From Leucoraja ocellata (lineage: Eukaryota), in assembly GCA_036785375.1 (NCBI GenBank), contig JAWMAR010000269.1:2418001-2482000 (forward strand): DNA of 64,000 nt. Direction: 5' to 3'. Shown in pieces: positions 3,959 through 52,010 of this stretch. A program made the translations under genes and the position numbers. Numbering within the stretch: the first letter of the stretch is position 1; each line of letters begins with the position of its first letter. The notes under the pieces were generated by a model. That model had not been told where the DNA came from and searched no databases. It saw nothing but the letters and a program-made list of their open reading frames with translations.

Positions 3959-4429
3959 TTTGCTTGTCTCTCTCGACATTCAGTTTGATCTGAGTCTCCT
4001 TCATTCTTTTTAATAATTTTATGCAGCGTTATAATTTTAATTTAAAGTATTTACAATAAACAATGGTTTGACCAAAGCATTGCATATGCCACCCATTGAG
4101 AATTATAATTCCCCAGTCCACCCCTCAACTTTGTAATGATTATTACATTTATGTTCTCATGTTATGTTCTCATCAAACAGTGTACATGATGAAACCCTAT
4201 CATAGTATGTCGATCTTTACTACTTTACCCTTTATCCTCCCCAGTTACAATTTTAAAAGCCCAGCCTCTTGCACCTCTGCACAACTAAAGCACTTTATTC
4301 TTGATTAGTTCCAATGGATTTACACTTTAATCTTTCCCTTGGTTTTATATTCGTCTCACAGTGCTTGAATCTCCTTTAATTCCTCTGACTTTGACCATCT
4401 TAGTCAAGCACAATCTGACAAAATCAAAT

Positions 4430-4600
4430 AGCTGCAGATGCTGAAAATCTGAAATTAAAACAGAACACGGTGGGAACACCCTGCAGGTCAAGCAGCGTCT
4501 GTGGAAAGCGAAATAGGTCAAAACTATTTGCCAGAGTTCCTTGTTGACAAATGCTGCCTGACCTGCTGAGTATTTCCAGCATTTTCTCTTTTTATTTACA
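4430..4600. mobile_element. Older fold-back Penelope-derived element
   Basis: ctgcagatgctg...ctgcaggtcaagcagcgtct is inverted relative to atgctgcctgacctgctgagtatttccagcattttct. Confidence 0.6.
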
Positions 4601-10470: not shown

Positions 10471-11397
10471 TTTTTAAATGTAAGCACTGCTGCGTTTTAG
10501 ACAAAATATGGGCGACAAATTTGTACACATTATTTCGATAATTGTATGTATGGTCAGTTCCACATTGTTGTGCATTTAGATAAGAAACAGTGTCCAGGGC
10601 ATAGTCAGAACTTGCTACAAGAAGAGAGCGAGCAAGCAGGACATTTCATGCCAATTTCAACAATGAGCGTTCTCTTAATATTGGAGAATGCTAGTTCATG
10701 CATGTGAAGCGATTACTTTCTATGATAAGACCCCGGTAAATTGATGCTTGCCATTGATGTTGAACTTTTTGTTGTTTCTTGATCCAGTGGCAGCAGTTGG
10801 AAATTGGACACATTTCACTGATGAGGCTTGAAGGAAAGTGTCTGCGAGGCACTATTGCAACACTTCCAAGACTGTACTTTCCAGTGGGGGCTATTTTTCC
10901 CCCACTTCAAACTAATTCCATGCAGCTGCATTATATTACTCAAGAACCAATGGAAAGATATGGTGGGACAAGTTTCAAATTATAAAGACTGACCCTAGTC
11001 AGAATGTGCACAAAATAACTATGTGGGGAATCAATAACAGCTATTGAGTGTTCTAGTCCAGAAATCGTACGCCTGACATTAACAAATCACATCTGCTCAG
11101 TGAAATATTGTCAGCCAGTGTTTTAGAGTGAAGCCACTAAAACCAATTATTTTGTTAAGTAAATTTAATGGAATAATCATTTGGTTCCTCTTTTTTTTCA
11201 TCCTTAATGTACTAATTATTTCATAATAAAGCTCAAAAATCCTCTTGTAACTGAACCTCAAAGTATACCCATCTATCCACTGTGTTTAGGAGTTGCATTC
11301 TATGCCATGACCTCATGCTTTTGGGTCATTGCCCCATATATTTGCAAGGCCCATGGTACTAAATCAGCAAGGGTGCAAGGAAGAGTGAAGTAAAGAT

Positions 11398-11571
11398 GTG
11401 TAGGAAGGAAATGCAGATACTGGTTTACACCAAAGATAGACACACAAACCAATTAACACGGCGGGTCAGGCAGTATCTCTGGAGAAAATGAATAGGTGAC
11501 GTCACCTATTCCTTTTCTCCAGAGATGCTGCCTGACCCGCTGAGTTACTCCAGCATTTTGTGTCCATCTTC
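11398..11571. mobile_element. Fold-back Penelope-derived element
   Basis: 40-bp arms 11461-11500 / 11501-11540 with 2 mismatches and no spacer, centred on GAC|GTC. Confidence 0.9.
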
Positions 11572-11667
11572 AGTGAAGTTAGATAATGGGTGCGTAAGAT
11601 GTTGACGTGGTTAGCCTCATGGGCAGACTGAATATCAGTGGAAAGGTTTCTGCAGAGATCTGGCACG

Positions 11668-23734: not shown

Positions 23735-24792
23735 TCTATATAATTAAAAGTTTCATCTTGACCACTTCCTGACTGCGCTGTATATTGATTTCAGAAAAGA
23801 CCCTACAATTTCTTGTTATGTTTTTTGGCCACCTTACTAACAGTCCTCCTCGGCTGAGCAGGCCCATTGATGACAAATAAAAAAGTTATTTGTATTTTAA
23901 AAATCTTGCGATCCTCTCGCCTGTCAATCACTGCGATGAAGATAACGCCCCTTCTGGGGGTGGGGGGGGGGGTGGGGGGGGGGCAGGACTATAAAACCCC
24001 AGATGTCACTCTGCAAGATCGCGAGGGAGAGGCCACGACTCTCATTCTAAGTTGTGAATCAACTGAACTGTGAGTTTGCAATGTACTTGCAATAAATGAT
24101 TTGTTAGCCCTTAATGACAATGCCATGAGTTGTTTGGCCTGCTGCCCTGCCTGTGCTCGAAACTGCAATGCTTTATTAGGTCTGACTGTGTTTGGAAGGA
24201 ATCAATGCTTTATTAGGTCCGACTGTGTTTGGTTCAAAAGTCCCGTTCATTTCGTGACTTCCGCTTAGTGGACAGGACGTGCTGATGGCGTAATTTCCCG
24301 TGAGTGCAGAGGTCAAGCTGATTGCGTAATTTTCAGTAAATGCAGAGGTCACGCTGATTGCGGGAGTGCCACTGACTGCGGAAACCCCAAAATAGAGAGG
24401 CCGCGCTCAGCCGTGTGAGTATTCAAGAAAGTTTACTGCCATATATATGGTGTGTGAGTCAGTGAGTGTGTGTGTGTGAGTGTCTGTTTGTGTGTGCAAG
24501 TGTATGTGTTTGTGAGTGTATGTGTGTGTGTGTGTATATGGGTGTGAGTTTGAGTGTGAGTGTGTGTGCGTGTGAGTGGTCTCAGTGACTGAGCTGCCAG
24601 CCCAAGAATCCATTTGGCCCACAATGTCCATAATAGCCCTCTGGAAACCAGTCCCTTTGGCCCACAACACCATGCTAGCGCTCCAGAACCCCCCCCCCCC
24701 ACTCCCACTCACTTGCCAGCAATATTGGAATTGGAGGAGAGGTGGAATATTGCGTTGGGGGACCAGCCCTCCCGTGTGAAGTCTTAGTCTAG
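23735..24792 (+). mobile_element. Non-autonomous Helitron-like element
   Basis: Begins a|TCTATATAATTAAAAG, ends CTAG|t, no TSD; internal tandem duplications and a GT-rich tract. Confidence 0.65.
24448..24578. repeat. Imperfect (GT)n/(GAGT)n microsatellite
   Basis: Direct reading. Confidence 0.9.
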
Positions 24793-25621
24793 TAACGGAT
24801 TATAAGCAGGATTGAGCATTCCAGGTCTCTGGACAATTGGACATCTTAGAGACACTTCTCTAGTGACACCTAGAGTAAGCATAAGAATAGTCAAGCCAAA
24901 TCTACTCTGCCTTCCAAAAAAATAAATTAAGCTTACCTCTAATATTTAGAACTCTGGTCCAAAAGTTAAAATTGCAGTTTAGATATGGACTACAATGTAA
25001 TGTGGAGCAAGCTTCCATTCTTCCATTTTTGCATTGATGTTTTATGCAGTTTCTTAATCACTTTTGTACACTTCAATCAGATATGTTTTGTGCAGCTATC
25101 ATCATCACTGGCTTGAGCCCATTTACCAGCTTCAGTACCAGTGTACATCACATACATGGAGGAGAGTGATATAATTTCACCTTAAACATTGAAGCATTTC
25201 ATTGATTTTCAGCTTCAGATCAATGAGGATGAATATAACAATGTATCCACTATCTAGTAGAATTTCTAAGCTATTAAGTGTAAGAATTAAAATGTCTGCA
25301 GATACTGCTGAAACCATCAAAGATGTTATTATATTTCCATGATGTTCTCAGCCATTGACTACTGAATATATGCTGTAAGTGAAAGATCTCTCCTGACTTG
25401 CTAATTGACTTGAGCCCAGTTGATTAAACAGATGGGTATATCTGTTGCTGAAGTTTAATGTGCTAAATGACAGAAATAATCAGATTTTGTAAAAACCAAG
25501 TTAACACACTAGGCAGTTCCACTTTTCAACAGATTTTGAACTGATGTAGGTTTAGTCGATTTTTAAGCAGAGAAATGGTACTGCTACTTCCGTAAGTAGA
25601 GAAATACACCAGAACAGCTTC

Positions 25622-25721
25622 AGGCTGAAGAAGGGTCTCGACCCGAAACGTCACCCATTCCTTCTCTCCAGAGATGCTGCCTCACCCGCTCAGTTACTCC
25701 AGCATTTTGTGTCTACCTTCG
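25622..25721 (+). mobile_element. Penelope-derived short element
   Basis: Hammerhead motif followed by cccattccttctctccagagatgctgcc...cagcattttgtgtct. Confidence 0.85.
25625..25653 (+). ncRNA. Minimal type I hammerhead ribozyme motif
   Basis: CTGAAGA-A-GGGT(CTCG)ACCC-GAAA-CG-TC; intact core and helix II, palindromic ACGT helix III; activity untested. Confidence 0.75.
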
Positions 25722-28164
25722 GGTTCAATGGATTTTGGTTGCTTAACTTGGAGGCCTGAATGTGAAAGCTACGACTTTTCAGGATTACTAGGTGGGATCA
25801 CTCGGAAAGCTTATTTTGTTGCTCAAAATGCCAAAAGACAATGGCAGGGTGCAGGGGTTGCTTGAATGTCTTGAGCATACTCTCCTGGTTGTCATGCAGT
25901 GTGCATCATTAATTGTAGCCATGGAGATTGTAGACTTGGCCATTCACCACTCCCAGCTGTATGGAAAAAAATATGTCTGTGCCCCTGGGTGAAGTGAAGG
26001 GATAAAATAGATGATGTGATAATTTTTCTATTATGAAAAAAAAATGTGTGCATTTTAATTTTAAAGAATCAGTAGCCTGCAGTATAAAATATTCAGTAGT
26101 CAGAAGAAACTAATTGTTTTGTTTGTTTCTCCACCCAGAAGGTGCCTGTTTCAAATATTATGGTTGATTCTATTTTATCAAATCTCCCCCCTTAACTCTT
26201 TTGGCAATAGCACATGTTAGTACCAGGGGCTGCTCTTTAAAACTAATTGCACAAGTACAGATCAGTAAATATTTGAGTCAATCAAGCTGCCAACTTCGGA
26301 GGGAACTTTGCAACAGAAAAAAAACCTATAGTAATTACCAAAGGTGAAAAAGTAAGGGTTAGGAAACTGTTGTGTGACAAAACTAAAGAACAAAAGTAAT
26401 TAAAATACTCATTTGTAATTAAGTAGTAATTAAAATGTTACGTGTAACTCAGAGTGCCATTTTGAAGTTTAAATAATTTAAGATTATTGTTTAATATGGG
26501 TTTATAAGCTCATTAAATCACCTTTCTTTTAATGAAGCATCCGAAAAGAATGGCAGTGCAGACTTCTGTCAAAAAAGCTAAATCTTTCCAGACTAAATTA
26601 AAAGAAAATGAGGAAGCCTAATGGCTTCTGTTTGGCAGCTTAAGCTTCTGTTTTTACTGTCACCTTCGTTTTATTCATGGTTGTCACTGTTGGGTCATGC
26701 ATTATTAATAATAATTTTAGGAACATTTAGCATAAATGCCAGTACAGTACCATGCTAGCTTTCGACACGAAGCAACAGCATATTGTTACAATTGCTGGAA
26801 ATGTTCTGAAAATGATTACACTAGAGAACTACAGCTGGCCCAAATGTCCATGAAATCTGCTGTGCTTTATTTCCCCCCCCCCCCCCCCCCCCCGTCCCCG
26901 CTTACTGCTATCGAGGTAAGTATTTCCCCATTGTGCACCATTTCTAGTTAGGAATTTACGTACACCTTTCTGTTATATTAATCTGCAAATATGAGTTAAA
27001 AGACGACAATGCAAATGTCAAACATGGCAGTTTAATAAAAAAAAGCTGAACCAAATGCAGTAAATCGGTGAGTGACTATAAGGAGTGCGATATCGGGTTT
27101 GTATTCTGTATTCACAATGGAAATACATGTTTGCCTCTGATGGTCCCATTACGTCGGCATTTTCATTTCCAATGAAGGGTCAGAACTGAAACAAGAGCCT
27201 TCTATCAGCTATGCGTGTAGGAATTAGCTATTTCCTACATTTTCTGGCTATGTTGTTTGCTGATTTTGCATATTTGCAAAACTACATTTTCTGGATTTTC
27301 AACGCACTATATCGTCCATAGAAGAAAGGATATAGTGCAGTAGAGGAAAAATGATTAGAGAAAAATACATTGAAATCAATCCTTGGGATCTCTAAGGAGG
27401 GGTATGCCCCAAATTTAATCTTCTGCCTTCCTCTCTTCAGTGTATGTCCACGATTTTGCCGTAAGGTACCAACAACTATCAACCTCTTGTGATCTGGATT
27501 TGGCAGTTTTTGAGTTGGTTCATAATGAATAGAAATCTGAACAGTTCCTGCTATCTTGTGGATTTGGAGGTGCCTGTTGCCTTCAAAAGTGATAGTTAAC
27601 TTAACTGAAGGAACAAAGTAATCCACTGCACGCACACAATACCTCTTTTATGTTGCAGCATAGATTGGCTGTCACATTAGAAGCTGATATGCAATTTTAA
27701 CACGGGACCAGGAATTTAAAATGCTCAATTAAAAAAAAGCAGTGGTTGCCCTATATGTTCCTGAAAAATATACTGATAGGGAACAATGTTGGTTGTTGGC
27801 TTTTATTTCCTGCCAAGCTCATGTAGAAATTGTGTATTCCCTGCTAGTATCATGATTAGTATGTGTGGATTTCTCAGTGGGTGTGAGAAAATCACACTGG
27901 CAGTCCAATTACTAGTGCCTATCTTAATGGATGTGTGTCTGTCCTGAAATATACTGTAATATTGCCTTTTTTGGAGCCTCACCACTCACAGATATAGATA
28001 TCTAAAAGATCTCTGGAATCCTATGGAGCTTCTGACTTTGAGCGGATCTGTGATGAATTCTTCTCAAATTTGGCTACCCTCAGAAATTCATCTTTATCCA
28101 TCATGTGCTACATGATCACAAGATCACAAGAGATAGGAGTAGAATTAAGCCATTCGACCTGATA

Positions 28165-28720
28165 TCATGCAGGGTATGATTTTAACCAAGGGGCTACAAC
28201 AGACCCAATTTGCAGCAAAGGCGAGCATCAAGCAAGGCTGTGTCGTCACTCTTAACACTTTCCTCGGTACCTTAGTACTGTGATTTATCTCCAATCAGCT
28301 TTCCACTGGAGTCAAACTAATCTGCAGGAAAATTAGGAAACTGTTGAGCCTACATCAGTAGTCAATAGTCAATAGTCAATTTAATTGTCATTTGGACCCC
28401 TGGAGGTCCAAACGAAATGCCGTTTCTGCAGCCATACATTACAAACAAATAGACCCCAGACACAACATAATTTACATTTTACATAAACATCCATCACATT
28501 GCTGTGATGGAAGGCCAAAAAAAACTTATCTCTCCACTGCACTCTCATGATTACTCCATCCTCATTCGTTGAGCTGCACTGCATAGATGGTGCTTTGGTC
28601 CATGGCCACGGGCCATTCGTACGTAGGTCACCAAAATGCACAAGGGAGTGGGCATTAAACTAAACATCTGCAACATATAGTTATTTCAAACTGCCCCATT
28701 GCACAATAGCGACTGAGCAA
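28165..28720 (+). mobile_element. Old RTE-clade LINE RT remnant, interrupted
   Basis: atcaagcaaggctgtgtc (IKQGCV), followed by GVKLICR and GKLLSL-like pieces resembling RTE RT motifs. Confidence 0.55.
28370..28546 (-). mobile_element. 3' end of the same family as 34956-35408
   Basis: Reverse-complement similarity; hairpin tttggacccctggaggtccaaa; (AGTCAAT)n tail. Confidence 0.8.
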
Positions 28721-30154
28721 GTCTCTGGAAATTGAGAATCTGTGCTTGGGTTGATGATCTAGATGCTATGGAAGCAACAGTTGAAACCTTGGGAAGAGGG
28801 AGAGAACATACATAACGTTTTTGAACTGAGTAATGTTTATAAATGGACAGGTTTTGTTTTCCGATTGTAAACGTTTGACAAATCATCAACACTACAAATA
28901 ATAAAAATGTGGACATCCCCATTTGCTCTTGCTGGGACCTCTTTGAGCAAATCACTTCAATCTTTTATTCGCTGCAGGAAGAGATTCACCTGCAGCCCCA
29001 AAGCTTGACAATAACTGGGCACTTACAGTTTCCAGACCAACTCTGACATCGACTTAAATTGGATTAATGACCTTTACTGTTTAGCTGCTTTATATAGGAA
29101 AGGATTTATCTAACTCACATTTTGCTATCGTATATCACCCACAGTGACATCTCCTGTGATTTGTCAATTGAGTAAGTACTTCAATTAACATGGAAAGAAA
29201 AATTGTTACCAGCCAAAGGTTAGAAGTGCAGCTGGCTATTTGGCTAATGCAACCGTAAACACTGGGATAATGATCTCATAAGTAATTGTACTCTATACAT
29301 TATAGTACATGACTTTCTGTTCTAACTTGTTCTTTGTGCTTATCAGAACCTTGTTTAGGTTTGCATCTTGCAATTAGAGTTGAACTTCCATGGGTTTCAC
29401 ACCAGACCAGCCCAAGATTGGACATGTGCTGTGCACCGGGCCAACAAACAAATGCATTGCAACAAATGTCTACAGCAGAATTCCAAAGCACTTTTACCAT
29501 ACACAAAGGCAGAGGAATGAAAGTAGTACTCAGTTCTTAGGTGGTTGGTACAGGGAAGGGGGCAGAGATGGGGAGTATGGAATAGGGTAGGCATAGGGAT
29601 AATGGAGTTAAGTCAGGTAGCAATCGAGATGGGGCGGATGGTCCTGGTGGAATTGGAAGCTTGTGGATCAGATCAGATCAGTACACAGAGAGACAATCAG
29701 TGAATTTGGTGTAGGATCAGCTTCTCGTTTAGCTGTGAGGTGGATCAGGATAGTAGTTGATTGCATTGGGGTGAAGATCAGGTGAAGTTGGTTGGAATTC
29801 AAGGAAGATTCACTTCAAGGTTTGTTTTTTTTACATAAAGGATCCCTACCAGCCCTTAAAGTGCCCCCTGTCTGTCACACTGGAGCAAGCCTTGCAATGA
29901 TTACTGAAGTCCTGCTTCTGCATGTACGACCCATGTACATGTATCCCAATAATATTTAACAGATGTGGTATCTGCATGCCTGTCGCTTCTGTTGGATGGG
30001 GATTTGTTTGGCTGGGGACATATGTGAGATAAGACACCATCATGTGTAGAGGAAAATTGCGGATTTTCTGAAAGACGCAGTAAGTTCGATGAACTTTTCG
30101 TAACCTTGTCGGCGCCAGAAACCTGGTGACTCTTGTGTACTGCCCAGGTGAGAT

Positions 30155-30245
30155 CTGCTGTATGATTTTACCGGGTTGTACACAAAACAAAGCATTTCAC
30201 TGCACCTAGGTACATGTTGCAGTAAATAATCATTGAATCATTGAA
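30155..30245 (+). mobile_element. Rex1/Babar-like 3' tail
   Basis: aaagcatttcactgcacctaggtacatg...taaa followed by (TCATTGAA)2. Confidence 0.5.
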
Positions 30246-30647
30246 GTCTTAGATCCAATTGAAAGATCAATTTACTGAAATGTTCTCGCATAGAACACAT
30301 TAACATGGTGCTGCATAATCACATTTCTAGATCACTAACTCATATTTGCAAATGCCCTCAATTTGAATCATTATTTGTACTGAGCTAAATCTAGAACTTT
30401 TAAATAAATACCTGAAATTCCATTTCTTTTTCTATTTTGTGCCTCTCCATTTTTGCACTTTTGATATATGTAAGCAAGGTGACGTATGCACATGTACAAT
30501 TTCCTTTTTGAGAGTTGTAAAGAGCTCAATATGTGTGCAACAGAATGAGATGATTAACTAAAAATTATTGTTTACTGTCTATTGTATTAGAGATTTGTAT
30601 TGTAGTTCCAAAATATTTGGATTTTTTGTTGTGTAAATAAATTATAG

Positions 30648-30828
30648 TTCATAGATTCATAAATGATAGGAGCATTCGGCCAATCAAGTCTATGCCTCCA
30701 TTCAATCATGGCTGATCTATATTTCTCTCCTTATCCCATTTTCCTGCCTTCTCCCCTATAACCCCTGACACCTGTACTAATCAAGAATCTATATATCTCT
30801 GCCTTAAAAATATCCATTGACTTGGCCA
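30648..30828 (-). mobile_element. CR1-like LINE 3' tail
   Basis: Reverse complement of about 6975-7140. Confidence 0.8.
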
Positions 30829-32529
30829 TTGGCTGTAGTGTAGGTTTTCCAACATACCGTGTGTACTGACTGACTGAATATATGTTTTTGATAGTTAGAT
30901 GAGCAATGCCGGATTTATGGATATTTATTTTTAATGCTGCTTAACTGATCCACTGGGATCCACATCCATTTTTCTGGAAATCCACAGAGCTAACTCCTAG
31001 CAGATATTGTTTGAATTAATTTTTATGAAATCCTCAATATCATGGCTGTCAGCCCACTCGACTAGAAAAGTGCTGAATATTTTAAGGATGGAAATTGTGC
31101 AGAAGTTAAACATAATTGTTTCTTTGGATGGTGGTCTGTGCGAATTGAGAGGCAATATCTTATTTACTAGAACATTTGGTTGGCATCAGTTGCCTAGATT
31201 GAGCTGGCATTTGTCAAACTATATGTACCACCCATTCCCTCTGGTGTTTTGTTAATAATACTAGGTTACCTCAGCAATAATCAATAAAAGTGTACCTGAG
31301 GCATGCAACTTGTTTCAAAGTAACATCATGGCAAGGGTTAACCCCAAGCAAGATCTCTGCCCCTCTAAGGCCAAAATAAATTCATTTCATTAAGATAATT
31401 GCTGCAAAAAACGACCATTTGAGGGGCTTTTTAACTGTGGTGGGAAGTCTTAGCACTTTTTACTCTTACTTCAGGAGATTGGTGTGATTTATGTTAGTTT
31501 GAATACAAAGATAACTTGGTCAATGCACCAGCAAACGTTAAGGCAGTGGGAAGTTCCAGTTTTTATGTGTGTGTGTGTGTATTACTGACTCTAATATGTT
31601 TACTGGGATCAGTTAACATGGAGGATCAAAGGTGCACTCCTAATAGAAATCTACCCGTAACTGCATCCAGATCTTTGAGAAAGTCGTGCAGCAGGATTTC
31701 TCCTGGAACAGTTCCTCACCGTGGAGTAACTTGAGAGTCTGGGACTTCTGTTGGAGAAGGAGATGGTGTTCACATCATGCCGTGTAGGAGCCCAGCCTGA
31801 GATCCCCGAACAGGGATCCAAGGTATCTTCTCAGTGCTTGCTTTGGATTGGAATAATCTCATTTTCCTATGCCCTTTGACAATTTTTTAATTTAGATGAA
31901 CCTTAATACAGACAGAAAAACTCAGCCTTTGTCCTCTTATTGAATTCAGTTGACAATTGGTGGGATTTACAAATATTATTCAGCTCGTACTTTTGGAAAT
32001 GATTAAAAAAATCATGTTTGTTTATATATTTTTGGTCTTGCCTCCTGTAAACTTTCAGAAATCTGGAGGAGAGCACATGGAAAATCCCGAGATTCTCACG
32101 TCCTGGTCACTTAAAGGTTTGGCCCTGTTATAGAATCATAGGAAACGTAGAATAAAGACATTGGCCATTTGGCCGACTGAACCTATTCTCGTGGAGAGCT
32201 ACATATTCTGGTCACAACATCTCGCTGTAGGTCAATGACTCTGCAGGTTGCAGCTGCTCAGAGGCACAGCAGAAGATGTTTTGAATGTGATTGAGGGTGT
32301 CTGCCTCTCTCACCCCCTAGGGCCATGAGAACCATATGCCTATTACCCTCTAAATGAAAAGAATGCTCCTCTAATTTTATGACTAATTATTTAAAATCTA
32401 TGCTTCAAGTCATCTAATTAACAAAATTTTACGATTTACCATCGCAGTATAATTAAACCCTTGGTCAGTAGGGATCTGTTTACATGAGAATACAATCACA
32501 CTTGACCAAAACAAATATTACTGTAGATG

Positions 32530-32758
32530 GACACAAAATACTGGAGTAACTCAGCGGGACGGGCAGCATCTCTGGAGAGAAGGAATGGGTGCGGTTCGGA
32601 TTGAGACCCTTCTTCAGACTGATGAAGTCTAAAGAAGGGTCTTGACCCAAAACACCACCCATTCCTTCTCTCCAGAGATGCTGCCTGTCAACCTGAGTTA
32701 CTCCAGCATTATGTGTCTATCTTCGGTTTAAACCAGCATCTGCAGTTTCTTCCTACAC
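32530..32758. mobile_element. Fold-back Penelope-derived element with two opposed hammerhead-like motifs
   Basis: Arms ~32530-32620 and ~32626-32717 are reverse complements around a few-nt spacer; both hammerhead copies are degenerate. Confidence 0.9.
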
Positions 32759-33149
32759 AATTATCGTGGATGGTCTCAGTCAACTGTTTTTCTATCTGTA
32801 TTAAGGTGCATCTCAATTTTAAAAATGTCCATCGGCATAGGAAAATTAAATTGCTCCAATCTAAAGCAAGCACTGATGCAGATATCGTCGATGAAATAGT
32901 CTCTCCACATCTTGAAAATTCAATGCAAAGTGATCTGCTCATTTGTTTTTCCAATAATCCTGCATGTCACCCATTTTTCGACGTCTTAATCTTTGGGAAG
33001 AAGTCTTTAAGAATAATTTACAGCTTCTGGATTTGTGTTGTTAGTCAGGGGCAGTAACAATGAGACATCATGGCCTACTGACAAATGGCTTCCAATCAAT
33101 AACTAGATAACACTTGCTTAGAGACCTGATTTTACTCCGCAGATAACAA

Positions 33150-33435
33150 GGTTAGAAATAAGGGGTAAGGCATTTAAGGGGTAAGCCATCTTTTAAGAAT
33201 AAGGGGTAAGCCATTTAGAACGGAGATGAGGAAACACTTTTTCACATGGAGAGTTGTGAGTCTGTGGAATTCTCTGCCTCAAAGGTGGAGGCCGGTTCTC
33301 TGGATACTTTCAAGAGAGAGCTTGATTGGGCTCTTGAAGTCAGTGGATATGGGGAGAAGGCAGGAACGGGGTACTGATTGTGGATGATCAGCCATGATCA
33401 CATTGAAATGTACTCCTGCACCTATTGTCTATGGT
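33150..33435 (+). mobile_element. CR1-like LINE 3' fragment
   Basis: agaataaggggtaagccatttagaacggagatgagg...; taaggggtaag occurs three times at the 5' junction. Confidence 0.8.
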
Positions 33436-33767
33436 CTTTTGTCTAAATGAATTATTATCAGTAGATTTTAAAGGAAGGTTATGCATGTTAGATATCATTT
33501 TGCTCAACGCTGTGTGACTCTTTAAATAAGAAACTAACAGTAATAACCAAGAGAAATCTGGTTAAATGCACATTTAAGACATGTGTAATATTCCAGTCTG
33601 TAATATTCCATTATGTTTCAATTCAAACAATCCATTCCCAAGTATTATATTTCTTGTTAGATGTTGGCATCTTCAGGTTTATCAGAAGAAATCATGACAT
33701 CAATCAACTTTTCTCAGGAGTCCAAAATAACACCATTCTTCAAATCTAATTAGGAATATCCTGAAAA

Positions 33768-33842
33768 TAAAACTGCTGGAGTATCTCAGCAGGTCAAGCA
33801 CCATCTCTGGAGAAGGATAGATGAAGTTTTGGGTCAGGATGG
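33768..33842 (-). mobile_element. Degenerate Penelope-derived short element
   Basis: tgctggagtatctcagcaggtcaagcaccatctctggagaagg. Confidence 0.55.
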
Positions 33843-34331
33843 GAGTCTCCTGATGCTTGCAAAATGTTCTCAGCATTATCTTACATAACTCATAAATAGT
33901 GATGTAGGATAGGTACGTTGGGACATATTTTCTGTCTGTTTAATATTCAGGCAGATTACAGATACAATTCATTTGGTTTATTCTTTTTATAGTGACCTAG
34001 TTGATGTTGATTGGTATTTTTTCTGACCCATATTTGAACTTCATTGGATGGCTAAAAAATCTTGCTTTTTTAAAGAATTTTCCACCAGAGTAATCGGGAC
34101 TTAGCTGGGATGTATTATTTTGGAGTTTGATCAGTTGAACACTTATTTATATATTGACCATGTTGGTCTAAGGTATACATGTAAGTATACACATGCAGGT
34201 ACTACTGTATATTGGGGTGGTTGAACTTTACGCAGGGATATAATAATGGTAAGAGGGACAATCACACAAGTATCGGCTGGAACTTTGCAGCCTATACAAT
34301 CAACAAAATACTACTACAATCGTGTTGTTTA

Positions 34332-43934: not shown

Positions 43935-45043
43935 AGTTTAAGAGGGAACTGCAGATGCTGGAGAATCGAAGGTTACACAGAAAAGCTGGAGAAACTCAGC
44001 GGGTGCAGCAGCATCTATGGAGCGAAGGAAATAGGCAACGTTTCGGGCCGAAACCCTTCTTCAGACTGATCAGGGGTGGGGGTGGGTGGGGACAAGAAAG
44101 GGAAAAGGAGGAGTAGCCGGAAGGCTGGAGGGTGGGAGGAGAAGGCTGGAGGGTGGGAGGAGACAGCAGGGGAGCTGAGGAAGGGGAGGAGACAGCAAGG
44201 ACTAACAGAATTGGGAGAAGTCGATGTTCATGCCCCCGGGGTGCAGACTCCCCAAACGGAATATGAGGTGCTGTTCCTCCAATTTCCGGTGCTGCTCGCT
44301 GTGGCCATGGAGGAGACCCAGGACAGAGAGGTCGGAGGCGGAGTGGGAGGGGGAGTTGAAGTGCTGAGCCACCGGGAGGTCAGCTAGGTTATTGCGGACC
44401 GAGCGGAGGTGTTCGGCGAAACGATCGCCCAACCTCCGCTTGGTCTCACCGATATAGATCTGCTGACATCTAGAGCAGCGGACGCAATAGATGAGGTTGG
44501 AAGAGATGCAGGTAAACCTCTGTCGCACCTGGAACGATTGCTTGGGTCCCTGAACGGAGTTGAGGGGGGAGGTAAAGGGACAAGTGTTGCATCTCCTGCG
44601 GCCGCAAGGGAAAGTGCCCGGGGAGGGGGTGGACCGAGAGGGAAGGGAAGAATTGACAAGGGAGTTATGGAGGGAGCGGTCTTTGCGGAAGGCAGATATG
44701 GGGGGAGATGGGAAGATGTGGCTAGTAGTGGGGTCACGTTGGAGGTGGCGAAACTGACGGAGGATTATTTTTTGTATGTGATGGCTGGTGGGGTGAAAGG
44801 TGAGGACTAGGGGGACTCGGCCCTTGTTGCGAGTGCGGGGATGGGGAGAGAGAGCAGTGTTGCGGGGTATGGAAGAGACCCTGGTGCGAGCCTCATTTAT
44901 GGTGGAGGAGGGGAACCCCCGTTCCCTGAATAGTGAGGACATTTCAGATGTCCTGGTGTGGAACGCCTCATCCGTGGAGCAGATGCGGCGTAGACGGAGG
45001 AATTGGGAGTAGGGGATGGAGTCCTTACAGGAAGTAGGGTGGG
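43935..45043 (-). mobile_element. 5'-truncated Penelope-like element (Neptune-type): RT C-terminus, Cys linker, GIY-YIG endonuclease and hammerhead-bearing 3' end
   Basis: ORF 44202-45137: HPTSCKDSIPYSQFLRLRRICS...CGRRRCNTC...NLIYCVRCSRCQQIYIGETKRRLGDRFAEH...VAQHF...EEQHLIFRLGSLHPGGMN; similarity is lost beyond ~45043. Confidence 0.93.
44037..44064 (-). ncRNA. Minimal hammerhead ribozyme motif in the Penelope 3' end
   Basis: Minus strand CTGAAGA-A-GGGT(TTCG)GCCC-GAAA-CG-TT. Confidence 0.75.
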
Positions 45044-45323
45044 TAGCCTCTGTCAATTGAATCCTATGTAAACGATGTGTTTGTATGTTAGTTTCTTCCA
45101 ATGATCGCTTGTCAGTCTGTGGCTGTCCCTCTTGCACTTAAAAATGCCTCGTCCATTGTAGAACTTCTCCCATTTTCATTTCCATTGAAAGCAGACAGAT
45201 TCAATACTGAGCTGCCAATGGGCAAAGCAAGTTAAATGTCTCAGCGGTTCATTCGGTGGAGCATCTCTTTAGTTTGTCAAGGAAAATAGGCTTTTCCTCA
45301 TACGGACTGTTCTGGGTGACTTA

Positions 45324-49914: not shown

Positions 49915-50246
49915 ATACAAATTAGAAACAGGTGCCAGGCATTCTGTTCCTCATGCCTACTCAGTTATTCAATAAAATTGTAGCTGGTCTGATTTTAACC
50001 TCAAACCCGCATTGCTACCTCCTGCCTTTCACCCTTTTGCTTAACAATTATCCATTTACCACTACCTTATAAATATTCACCCCCTTTAGGGATGAGAATT
50101 CCAAAGAGTCTTATTCTCCTGAGTGAAAATAAAGCAACTCATTGCTATCTTAAACGAGTGACCTTATTTTTAAGTAGTGACACCTAGTTCTACAAGAGGA
50201 AGCAATTCATCCACATCCACCCTGACAATACCCTTCAGGATTTTGT
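49915..50246 (-). mobile_element. Old CR1-like LINE 3' fragment
   Basis: Degenerate reverse tail (ttcaataaaattgtagctggtctg...gagaattccaaagagtc). Confidence 0.5.
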
Positions 50247-50400
50247 GCAAGAAAGAACTGCAGATGCTGGTTTACACTGAAGATGGACACAAAATGCTGG
50301 AGTAGCTCAACGGGTCAGGCAGCATCTCTGGATCAGCCTGATAAACGGTCTCAACCCGAAACGTCACCTATTCATTTTCTACAGAGATGCTGCTTGTCCC
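50247..50400. mobile_element. Fold-back Penelope-derived element
   Basis: Minus arm 50247-50331, then a plus-strand degenerate hammerhead at 50338-50366 and tail; flanks cccttcaggattttgt / cctttcaagattttgt. Confidence 0.8.
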
Positions 50401-51866
50401 CCTTTCAAGATTTTGTACTTTTTGAGTCATTTGTCACTATTAGTAATATCAAAATAAATATTACATTTCTGATCTTCTTGGCATGGAGTACCTTTGGATG
50501 CAGCGGGCTTACACATTTATTCTACTCTATATCTTTCAGCCACTGTATGTGGCAAGTGGAAGTCAAGAAAAATAGAATTGTTTTCATATTAATGAAACCT
50601 ATTACAGCTTTCCACTGCCTTACTCAAAATGGAAGATAACTACTAATACAAAGAAGAAATATTTCAGAGAAACAAAATTGTTTGTGCATTTGAGATAGCA
50701 GAGATTAATTCCATTCACCTAATGTCCTATGTCAGTGAATTTCAAGTATGCAGGAATAGATTTTGAAAATAGAATTTCTGCAAAATGTTTACTTATTTTG
50801 TGATTGTTCTGCTGAATTGTATAACTTGCTGCATTCTCTGGTGTCCTTCCAGGTTATTAACTGCAGTAAAGGACTTAGCACTTATATAGGTTGCCACTAA
50901 GTATGGCATCAATTTCAATATGTGTTAATGTTTAATATTGACTATTGGTCATTTAATACCTCTTCCTCAGCAGTCTGCAGTGGTTCAACTTTATCTCTAT
51001 ATAACCTATTGATAAAAGTGAAAAAAAAAACTCCAGAATGTGAGGCCAGCAGGTTAAGTCTCTAAGAGTTTTATCATTCTGTCAAACCAGTCAAGTCCTA
51101 TGCTTTTGATGTGAGGCATATATATATTTCATGGCCCAATCACAATTTCACATGTTCAAAGCATATCACAAATTCCTACAAAGTGCTATCTGGCTTTTTT
51201 TTTAATATCCATGTAAAGGTAAGTGTTCAGGATTTGTAGAAATGTGGCTCACCCCTTCACTGTGACCAAGTTCAATGGATCAGAAAGGGTTCATTGAAAA
51301 TCCACTTGAGCACAGCACAGCAACAATATAACCGTAGAATGTAAGTTTTATCACTGGGCCTTCATGGAAGTAAGGGTTGTAATAATAGTCAATGATTATT
51401 CAATAACTTGCATCCATAAAGAAACATGTACAATGTCAAAAGATATCCGAATGTGCTCAGTAACTGCAAAAGGAAGAAACGAGAATAAAGCCAATCCTTA
51501 GAAAAATATTTGGAACAGGATTTGGTCACATGCTCCGGCTCCCATTTCCTCATTAAGTACATGCATTAAATTTTAGATATATAATCCCCCCATTTAAAAG
51601 ATGGATTCAGAATTGTTTAGAAAGGTTTTAAGCTTTTGGCTGTTGATATTGCCATTGCAATTTCTGCTGAATAGACTGGACAAGGCTTGAATTTTTCACT
51701 CATTTTGGTTGTGTTAGGGGGTGTAATATCATCATCGTAACGTTGCTACAGGCAAAAGCAAAATTGTATTTCTTTAATGAACTGCAACTTAATTGGAAAT
51801 GAACAAATAATGTATACCAGCTGCCCATCCAAAGTTCCCAGTCACTTGACTGCCAGGTCCACTACA

Positions 51867-52010
51867 AAGACAGACACAAAATGCTGGAGTAACTCAGCGG
51901 GACAGGAGGAATGGGTGACGTATCAGGGTGGAGCCCCTTCTTCAGAGTTACTACAACATTTTGTGTCTGTCTTTGGTTTAAACCAGCATCTGTAATTCCC
52001 TCATACACAA
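51867..52010. mobile_element. Fold-back Penelope-derived element
   Basis: aaagacagacacaaaatgctggagtaactc is inverted as gagttactacaacattttgtgtctgtcttt; flanks gtccactaca / gtctactaca. Confidence 0.8.

Follow-up and report, generated by a model that had tools for sequence, protein, structure and literature searches.

In LINE-1 twin priming the element RNA is primed by both target overhangs, and the resulting pair of cDNAs is joined head to head within one target-site duplication (TSD). Ambisense ribozyme RNAs are non-coding and carry hammerheads. Insertions of EN+ Penelope-like elements (PLEs), as described in the available portions of PMC3846280 and PMC8557442, contain inverted pLTR copies with a tail of 30-40 bp at one end and one enclosing TSD; the available text of PMC8557442 and PMC11167929 calls the origin of the inverted ends and of the one-sided tail open. 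For Poseidon PAc of Anolis, the accessible part of PMC11167929 reports that the protein of this related PLE nicks and extends both target strands in vitro, and that reverse transcription starts at two internal RNA sites delimiting the tail. In the accessible part of PMC4209133, Schistosoma presents dual hammerhead motifs on opposite strands, 100-700 bp apart, so that from these sources both the combination of inverted pLTR, one-sided tail and TSD (PMC3846280, PMC8557442) and opposite-strand hammerhead pairs (PMC4209133) are already known. No description of two-sided priming in PLEs, or of the present family, was found in the literature searched, which lay outside subscription papers, supplements, Repbase and Dfam.

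We analysed a window of 64,000 nt from Leucoraja ocellata (contig JAWMAR010000269.1, positions 2,418,001 to 2,482,000 of the forward strand), in which a palindromic unit occupies 32517..32773. With a probability of about 0.8, the unit represents an old and minimal Neptune-type PLE insertion with mutated hammerheads, which arose when each of two target overhangs served as primer for a short cDNA on the 5' end of the element RNA, and these two cDNAs were then fused head to head. The element endonuclease would cut the target about 14 nt apart, leaving 3' overhangs, one of which would prime at an internal RNA site near +97, the second of them near +135. From there the cDNAs would both extend towards the 5' end of the RNA, placed at the A of a TCAGTC motif, and would be joined head to head by microhomology or end joining. 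The template could be one RNA or two sister RNAs from the same source, and the hammerhead would have no role after insertion. The two cDNAs of LINE-1 twin priming copy different parts of the RNA, whereas here the same part would be copied from two fixed sites, yielding a palindrome.

The reverse-complement arms extend over 32520-32620 and 32626-32727 (77 nt at 86% and 26 nt at 81%, 5 nt apart), with an arm-to-arm identity of 84.5% over 97 nt. The palindrome region folds at a predicted −163 kcal/mol compared with −75 ± 5 for 200 shuffles, none of which was as good (z = −18). These data bear out an earlier note on this DNA, which had described ~90-bp reverse-complement arms around a spacer of a few nt and had expected a long hairpin from either strand. 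In pLTR terms, the short arm (32525..32620, minus strand, profile positions 2-103) runs from +1 to about +97 and has no tail, and the long arm (32626..32759, plus strand, profile positions 2-136) runs from +1 to about +135. They are separated by a 5-nt junction (32621..32625) that in its exact form is unique to the locus and of which four bases match the native minus-strand sequence just upstream of +1. The note had called the unit a head-to-head palindrome; the mirror arms are real but not the symmetry, since a 37-nt tail (32723..32759, plus strand) sits on the right arm only. Such one-sided tails are typical of Penelope-like insertions in the available portions of PMC3846280, PMC8557442 and PMC11167929.

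The two 14-mers flanking the palindrome, at 32517..32530 and 32760..32773 (plus strand), are identical at 11 of 14 positions, as the note had stated. Their TSD score of 6.5 is a level reached by 15.6% of 1000 mismatched-flank controls; this TSD is weak taken alone, and it is credible because the insertion class to which the unit belongs has TSDs. The left copy shares its last 6 nt with the short arm's 3' end; five of the six match the family sequence, and the sixth would form a G-U pair with the RNA. The window arms differ at 8 of 87 non-CpG positions. The unit is an old, minimal (~235 bp, non-coding) insertion, and the locus is dead. A 91-nt inverted repeat of 85% identity (31831-31921 and 32786-32876; 864 nt in all) encloses the palindrome and may be an older inverted-repeat element that received the stub.

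Hammerhead-like boxes adjoin the centre of the palindrome, one on each strand, and both are degenerate, in line with what had been seen at first. On the minus strand (32590..32617) CUGAAGA is intact, GAAC stands in place of the GAAA box, and the cleavage site lacks its preceding U. On the plus strand (32629..32656) the boxes read CUAAAGA and AAAA (G5 to A and G12 to A, in the established core numbering) and the GUC site is absent. Neither window arm has therefore the active core of intact CUGANGA, GAAA and NUH, all three of which the intact parent element carries, with a helix I of ~2 bp and no helix III loop. Using Rfam, no hammerhead was obtained at gathering score in the whole window and none at E<=10 in 32400-32900; generic miRNA-like hairpin matches (E<=10) were rejected, being far under their thresholds. 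Within the full hairpin the predicted probability of helix II is 0 on both strands. When two parent copies were cofolded without constraints, the active dimer was not obtained. According to the accessible part of PMC4209133, minimal hammerheads of this kind depend on dimers and are weak in vitro, and the minimal type I hammerheads of metazoan PLEs have the same core boxes, the same bulged base before helix II, the same absence of a helix III loop and the same palindromic ACGU. The present family differs from them in its helix I of about 2 bp, and both window copies are mutated.

The arm is the pLTR segment that directly precedes the ORF of a Neptune-type Penelope-like parent, and it matches 21 places within the window. 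RT and GIY-YIG frames have left remnants directly upstream of arms, at 45068-44223 and 58317-57697 of the window and at sampled loci; arms of the subfamily type to which the window unit belongs also have GIY-YIG remnants upstream. A 5'-truncated copy of a sister subfamily (43935..45137, minus strand) carries an RT-thumb/GIY-YIG frame (44202-45137) directly upstream of its arm (44067-43935). Intact copies were found by searching with one RT remnant. In 7 of the 12 stretches fetched, an arm, an open frame of 1233 codons, a 116-nt UTR and a second arm follow each other, and because of this order the arm forms the 3' pLTR end and, equally, the initial ~135 nt before the ORF. Some of these units stand in tandem with a period of 3946 bp, giving the pLTRs a tandem or partial-tandem arrangement.

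The predicted parent protein (P0001), 1221 aa long from the first Met, presents a long proline-rich insert before the RT, DKG and YIDD motifs, a CX4CxxC linker and a GIY-YIG domain with two cysteines; these motifs were read by eye, the Pfam RVT_1 and GIY-YIG matches being weak and under cut-off. Judged by its sequence, the parent qualifies as an EN+ PLE, with RT and, at the C terminus, a GIY-YIG of the CCHH type in one ORF. Its features, e.g. the linker, assign it to the Neptune/Nematis type, of which a CX2-5CxxC linker between RT and endonuclease is a feature in the available part of PMC8557442. Poseidon PAc likewise has a hammerhead about 100-140 nt upstream of two tail-delimiting 3' ends (PMC11167929, available part); compared with it, the parent here has the Neptune/Nematis CX4CxxC linker and a start codon after the tail. 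Intact full-length parents (L240:5728-9807, L242-L247) occur in many near-identical copies, which suggests recent activity. They form a younger sister subfamily, the window arms belonging to an older one. Another Penelope family, found via Pfam GIY-YIG (L111-L114, L120), has a 759-codon RT + GIY-YIG frame (759 aa), tandem arrays and a different hammerhead of its own, and is not the parent. Some of its units have an upstream frame and some copies adjoin telomere-like repeats.

The frequency of such pairs was determined by a profile search for the arm in 130 arbitrarily placed 10-kb stretches and the window, i.e. 1,364,000 bases. This sample contained 693 arm matches (~500 per Mb); a reversed-sequence control of the first 764 kb gave 0. 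Neighbours within 60 nt were arranged head to head in 119 cases, in tandem in 38 and tail to tail in 9, and the first 764 kb held 65 head-to-head pairs where chance would give about 3 for each orientation. Extrapolation leads to ~300,000 pairs per genome, of the order of 10^5; since some blocks are duplicated in the assembly, this is an upper figure. The small size (~235 bp), the lack of coding sequence and this copy number set the units apart from the EN+ PLE insertions described in the available parts of PMC3846280 and PMC8557442. The window itself contains four further pairs of this family that are likewise arranged head to head, at 11397-11575, 50243-50403, 51856-52010 and 4425-4589, the first of which turns on the palindromic ACGT of helix III.

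Within the pairs, the 3' ends of the arms cluster near +97 and +135, these ends being profile-HMM boundaries and therefore fuzzy. A long and a short arm are combined in 80 of 97 scorable pairs against 48.5 expected (p = 3e-11; 22 pairs were unscorable), the other 17 being long-long or short-short. A TSD score of at least 8 was obtained for 49 of 96 pairs compared with 3.9% of 1000 controls, the TSDs being mostly 10-16 nt long. The window unit and its class thus share the PLE insertion signature, i.e. an inverted 5'-truncated copy, a 30-40-bp tail at one end and a TSD. One TSD around both arms, the TSDs of the whole class and the long + short coupling support the claim that the unit was inserted as one piece. 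Two independent back-to-back insertions, or a later inverted duplication, would be favoured by the density of the repeat and by the weakness of the window's own TSD. However, the excess of head-to-head over tail-to-tail neighbours and over chance, together with the coupling of arm lengths, the subfamily match between arms and the TSDs around the pairs, makes such an origin very unlikely.

The divergence between the arms of a pair is 14.8%, against 22.0% with shuffled partners (84 of the 119 pairs). Subfamily columns agree between the arms (58 of 64 at one column, 34 being expected), and at CpG columns the agreement is near chance; the arms were therefore matched at insertion and then decayed apart. 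Ongoing gene conversion between them was rejected, as CpG decay is near independent. Rare variants are common to both arms in 18 of 464 cases, a modest enrichment over shuffles (1.2%, maximum 2.8%), and a few pairs look discordant between arms. A 7.4-kb inverted insertion has the same long and short ends and a 15-nt TSD, and the stub is therefore the short extreme of one process. Multi-kilobase head-to-head insertions of the parent were observed at L250:2488-9024 and L251:2139-9498, with TSDs of 13 and 15 nt.

Priming from both target nicks predicts long and short arms, a matched subfamily, independent decay and variable junctions, all of which are seen. The matched subfamily would also be expected if a single insertion of the same family had acquired its mirror arm by self-priming, a cDNA or antisense transcript folding back and copying itself, as proposed for rotifer Penelope elements in the available part of PMC3846280. 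Some junctions are perfect palindromes or overlap, and the short arm is not further 5' than the long one in 46 of the 80 long + short pairs, both of which self-priming would accommodate. In the other 34, the short arm lies further 5' by at least 8 nt (including 12 of the 25 least diverged pairs), and the reverse holds for 18 of the 80 (p = 0.04; deletions at palindrome centres could blur this comparison). Fold-back of a long cDNA cannot give the 34 pairs, because its short arm would never reach further 5'. Moreover, short arms stop at the same ~+97 as solo copies, which points to a priming site and not to the stop of second-strand synthesis. We consider self-priming unlikely; judged by the pair statistics, two-ended priming is preferable to the process set out in PMC3846280, as far as the available text describes it. 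The bias in 5' extent is also a weak hint of a long-arm enzyme trailing a short-arm enzyme on a single RNA. As a counterpoint, the available part of PMC11167929 reports no difference between the strands in the start site of PAc in vitro, whereas the genomic pairs here couple the two sites to opposite strands.

The RNA 5' end assumed by two-sided priming can be located on solo copies. In 117 solo copies without upstream UTR, conservation drops from +1 (A 62%) to −1 (C 30%), and the family sequence starts sharply at the A of TCAGTC; the 78 UTR-bearing copies give 81% at both positions, 35 intermediate copies being left out of this comparison. We take TCAGTC to be an initiator-like motif, and the element RNA probably starts at its A, to judge from the ends of genomic copies. 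The pLTRs of EN+ PLEs likewise contain an initiator-like motif in the available parts of PMC3846280 and PMC8557442, the former describing it in a rotifer pLTR. An origin of this 5' end at a splice acceptor was rejected, as it predicts loss of the AG, yet most stubs keep it. Hammerhead cleavage as the source of the 5' ends was also rejected, no peak being present at the cleavage site among 386 matches; that few copies start there agrees with cleavage being dispensable in vitro for PAc (PMC11167929, available part). A test for an extra G at the 5' end, as for capped RNA, gave no excess.

The exact 27-nt junction of the window unit has 2 matches in 3.44 Gb, its own locus and a duplicate with the same flanks, in an exact search that could miss decayed copies. 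It is absent from the 30 loci of the best similarity matches, whose junctions differ, barring the duplicates of one locus. Window 23783-33953 recurs on contig C131 (L227) with 98.5-99.5% identity over the 10 kb fetched, and this duplicate is likely a second haplotype. Differences between the copies include the minus-strand hammerhead, the duplicate having an intact GAAA box and U and having lost the first G-C pair of helix II. No dispersed copies sharing the central junction of the window unit were thus found. The earlier note had named a unique junction in every fold-back copy as evidence against its proposal; uniqueness holds for the window copy (one locus and its duplicate), but junctions recur elsewhere. 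The commonest one accounts for 1,496 of 3,369 exact matches to a pattern with both arms complete, and it falls on CAGTCTG, a quasi-palindrome of 7 nt that could allow the ends of two cDNAs to anneal. The 21 copies inspected belong to several subfamilies, and their central base faces the tail both ways (11 against 9, two of the nine being duplicates, and one unclear). Fourteen of them have distinct TSDs of 13-22 nt. This junction looks repeatedly re-made.

A different, fixed junction gave 2,046 exact matches, regionally clustered, and is borne by 3 of the 119 sampled pairs. The 14 loci inspected (L252-L265) contain a tandem derivative of 66-bp pLTR pieces with a short internal inversion, in which the GAAAC half of the hammerhead is present and no CUGA box lies at the junction. 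This derivative is a separate family that does copy a fixed junction. It also occurs at L183:3593, L184:1970, L185:8981 and L119:2959-3494, with clusters in C1 and C5 among those listed; L259/L260 show a higher-order repeat of ~555 bp, and 66-bp joints matching the derivative were observed in poly(A) reads of run X22.

The 2,046 recurrences in this other derivative would be in keeping with a non-autonomous palindromic element of which a master hairpin makes whole copies, possibly via an ambisense RNA with a hammerhead per strand. One TSD enclosing both arms would fit as well, and so would family-like reads on both strands in the poly(A) RNA of a related organism. For the window copy, however, such copying is largely refuted by a junction unique to one locus, and the mutated cores and a helix II that, by prediction, cannot form in the hairpin on either strand argue in the same direction. 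In addition, transcription always passes through the complement before it reaches the sense hammerhead. Both cores are intact in only 2 of the 119 sampled pairs, 12 of which span both motifs, and the share of intact cores among pairs (15 of 80) does not exceed that among solos (50 of 221); selection for a double ribozyme left no sign across the sampled pairs and solos. In 6% of one poly(A) run of one related organism, no locus-specific RNA was seen, the unique flanks having near-zero depth, and the reads on the arms derive from other copies, on both strands; this single library says little about other tissues. Altogether, we regard copying from a master hairpin as extremely unlikely.

The window unit is therefore a one-piece insertion but no self-propagating ambisense ribozyme, because its junction is unique, its two hammerhead cores carry mutations and are trapped in the hairpin, and no locus-specific RNA was seen in the one library. 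Transcription of both strands together with a ribozyme fold, which would define an ambisense RNA, was not observed here, given the zero probability of helix II and no locus reads in the one library, and the self-contained ambisense ribozyme element proposed in the note is not supported. Its fallback, an extreme case of the inverted Penelope pLTR, is the reading that stands, since an inverted pLTR, a one-sided tail and a TSD are the published PLE signature. No sign of copying of the window unit as a whole was detected. Non-LTR retrozymes (bioRxiv 10.64898/2026.07.22.740005, available part) are also PLE-derived, non-coding and hammerhead-bearing, but they are head-to-tail tandems with intact cores, whereas the window unit consists of one head-to-head pair whose cores are broken. 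Contigs from four further organisms yielded no empty site; in them the unique flank runs into the element, 20-34 letters past the TSD, on both sides in two organisms and on the right side only in two, only one junction meeting the 31-letter rule for bridging.

More tentatively, and at a little short of an even chance, PLE integration may be intrinsically two-sided, one complex priming both overhangs at two fixed sites of the same RNA, the 5'-nearer first. The ~10^5 stubs would then be a natural read-out of the reaction and of the RNA start, and one inverted junction would have become frozen in a tandem, hammerhead-less derivative spread to >2,000 places. The class is mildly informative on mechanism, and this genome supplies, in its intact parents and its thousands of young stubs, material for weighing two-sided priming against self-priming. 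Speculatively, ~10^5 short palindromes could represent a large passive source of dsRNA in introns.
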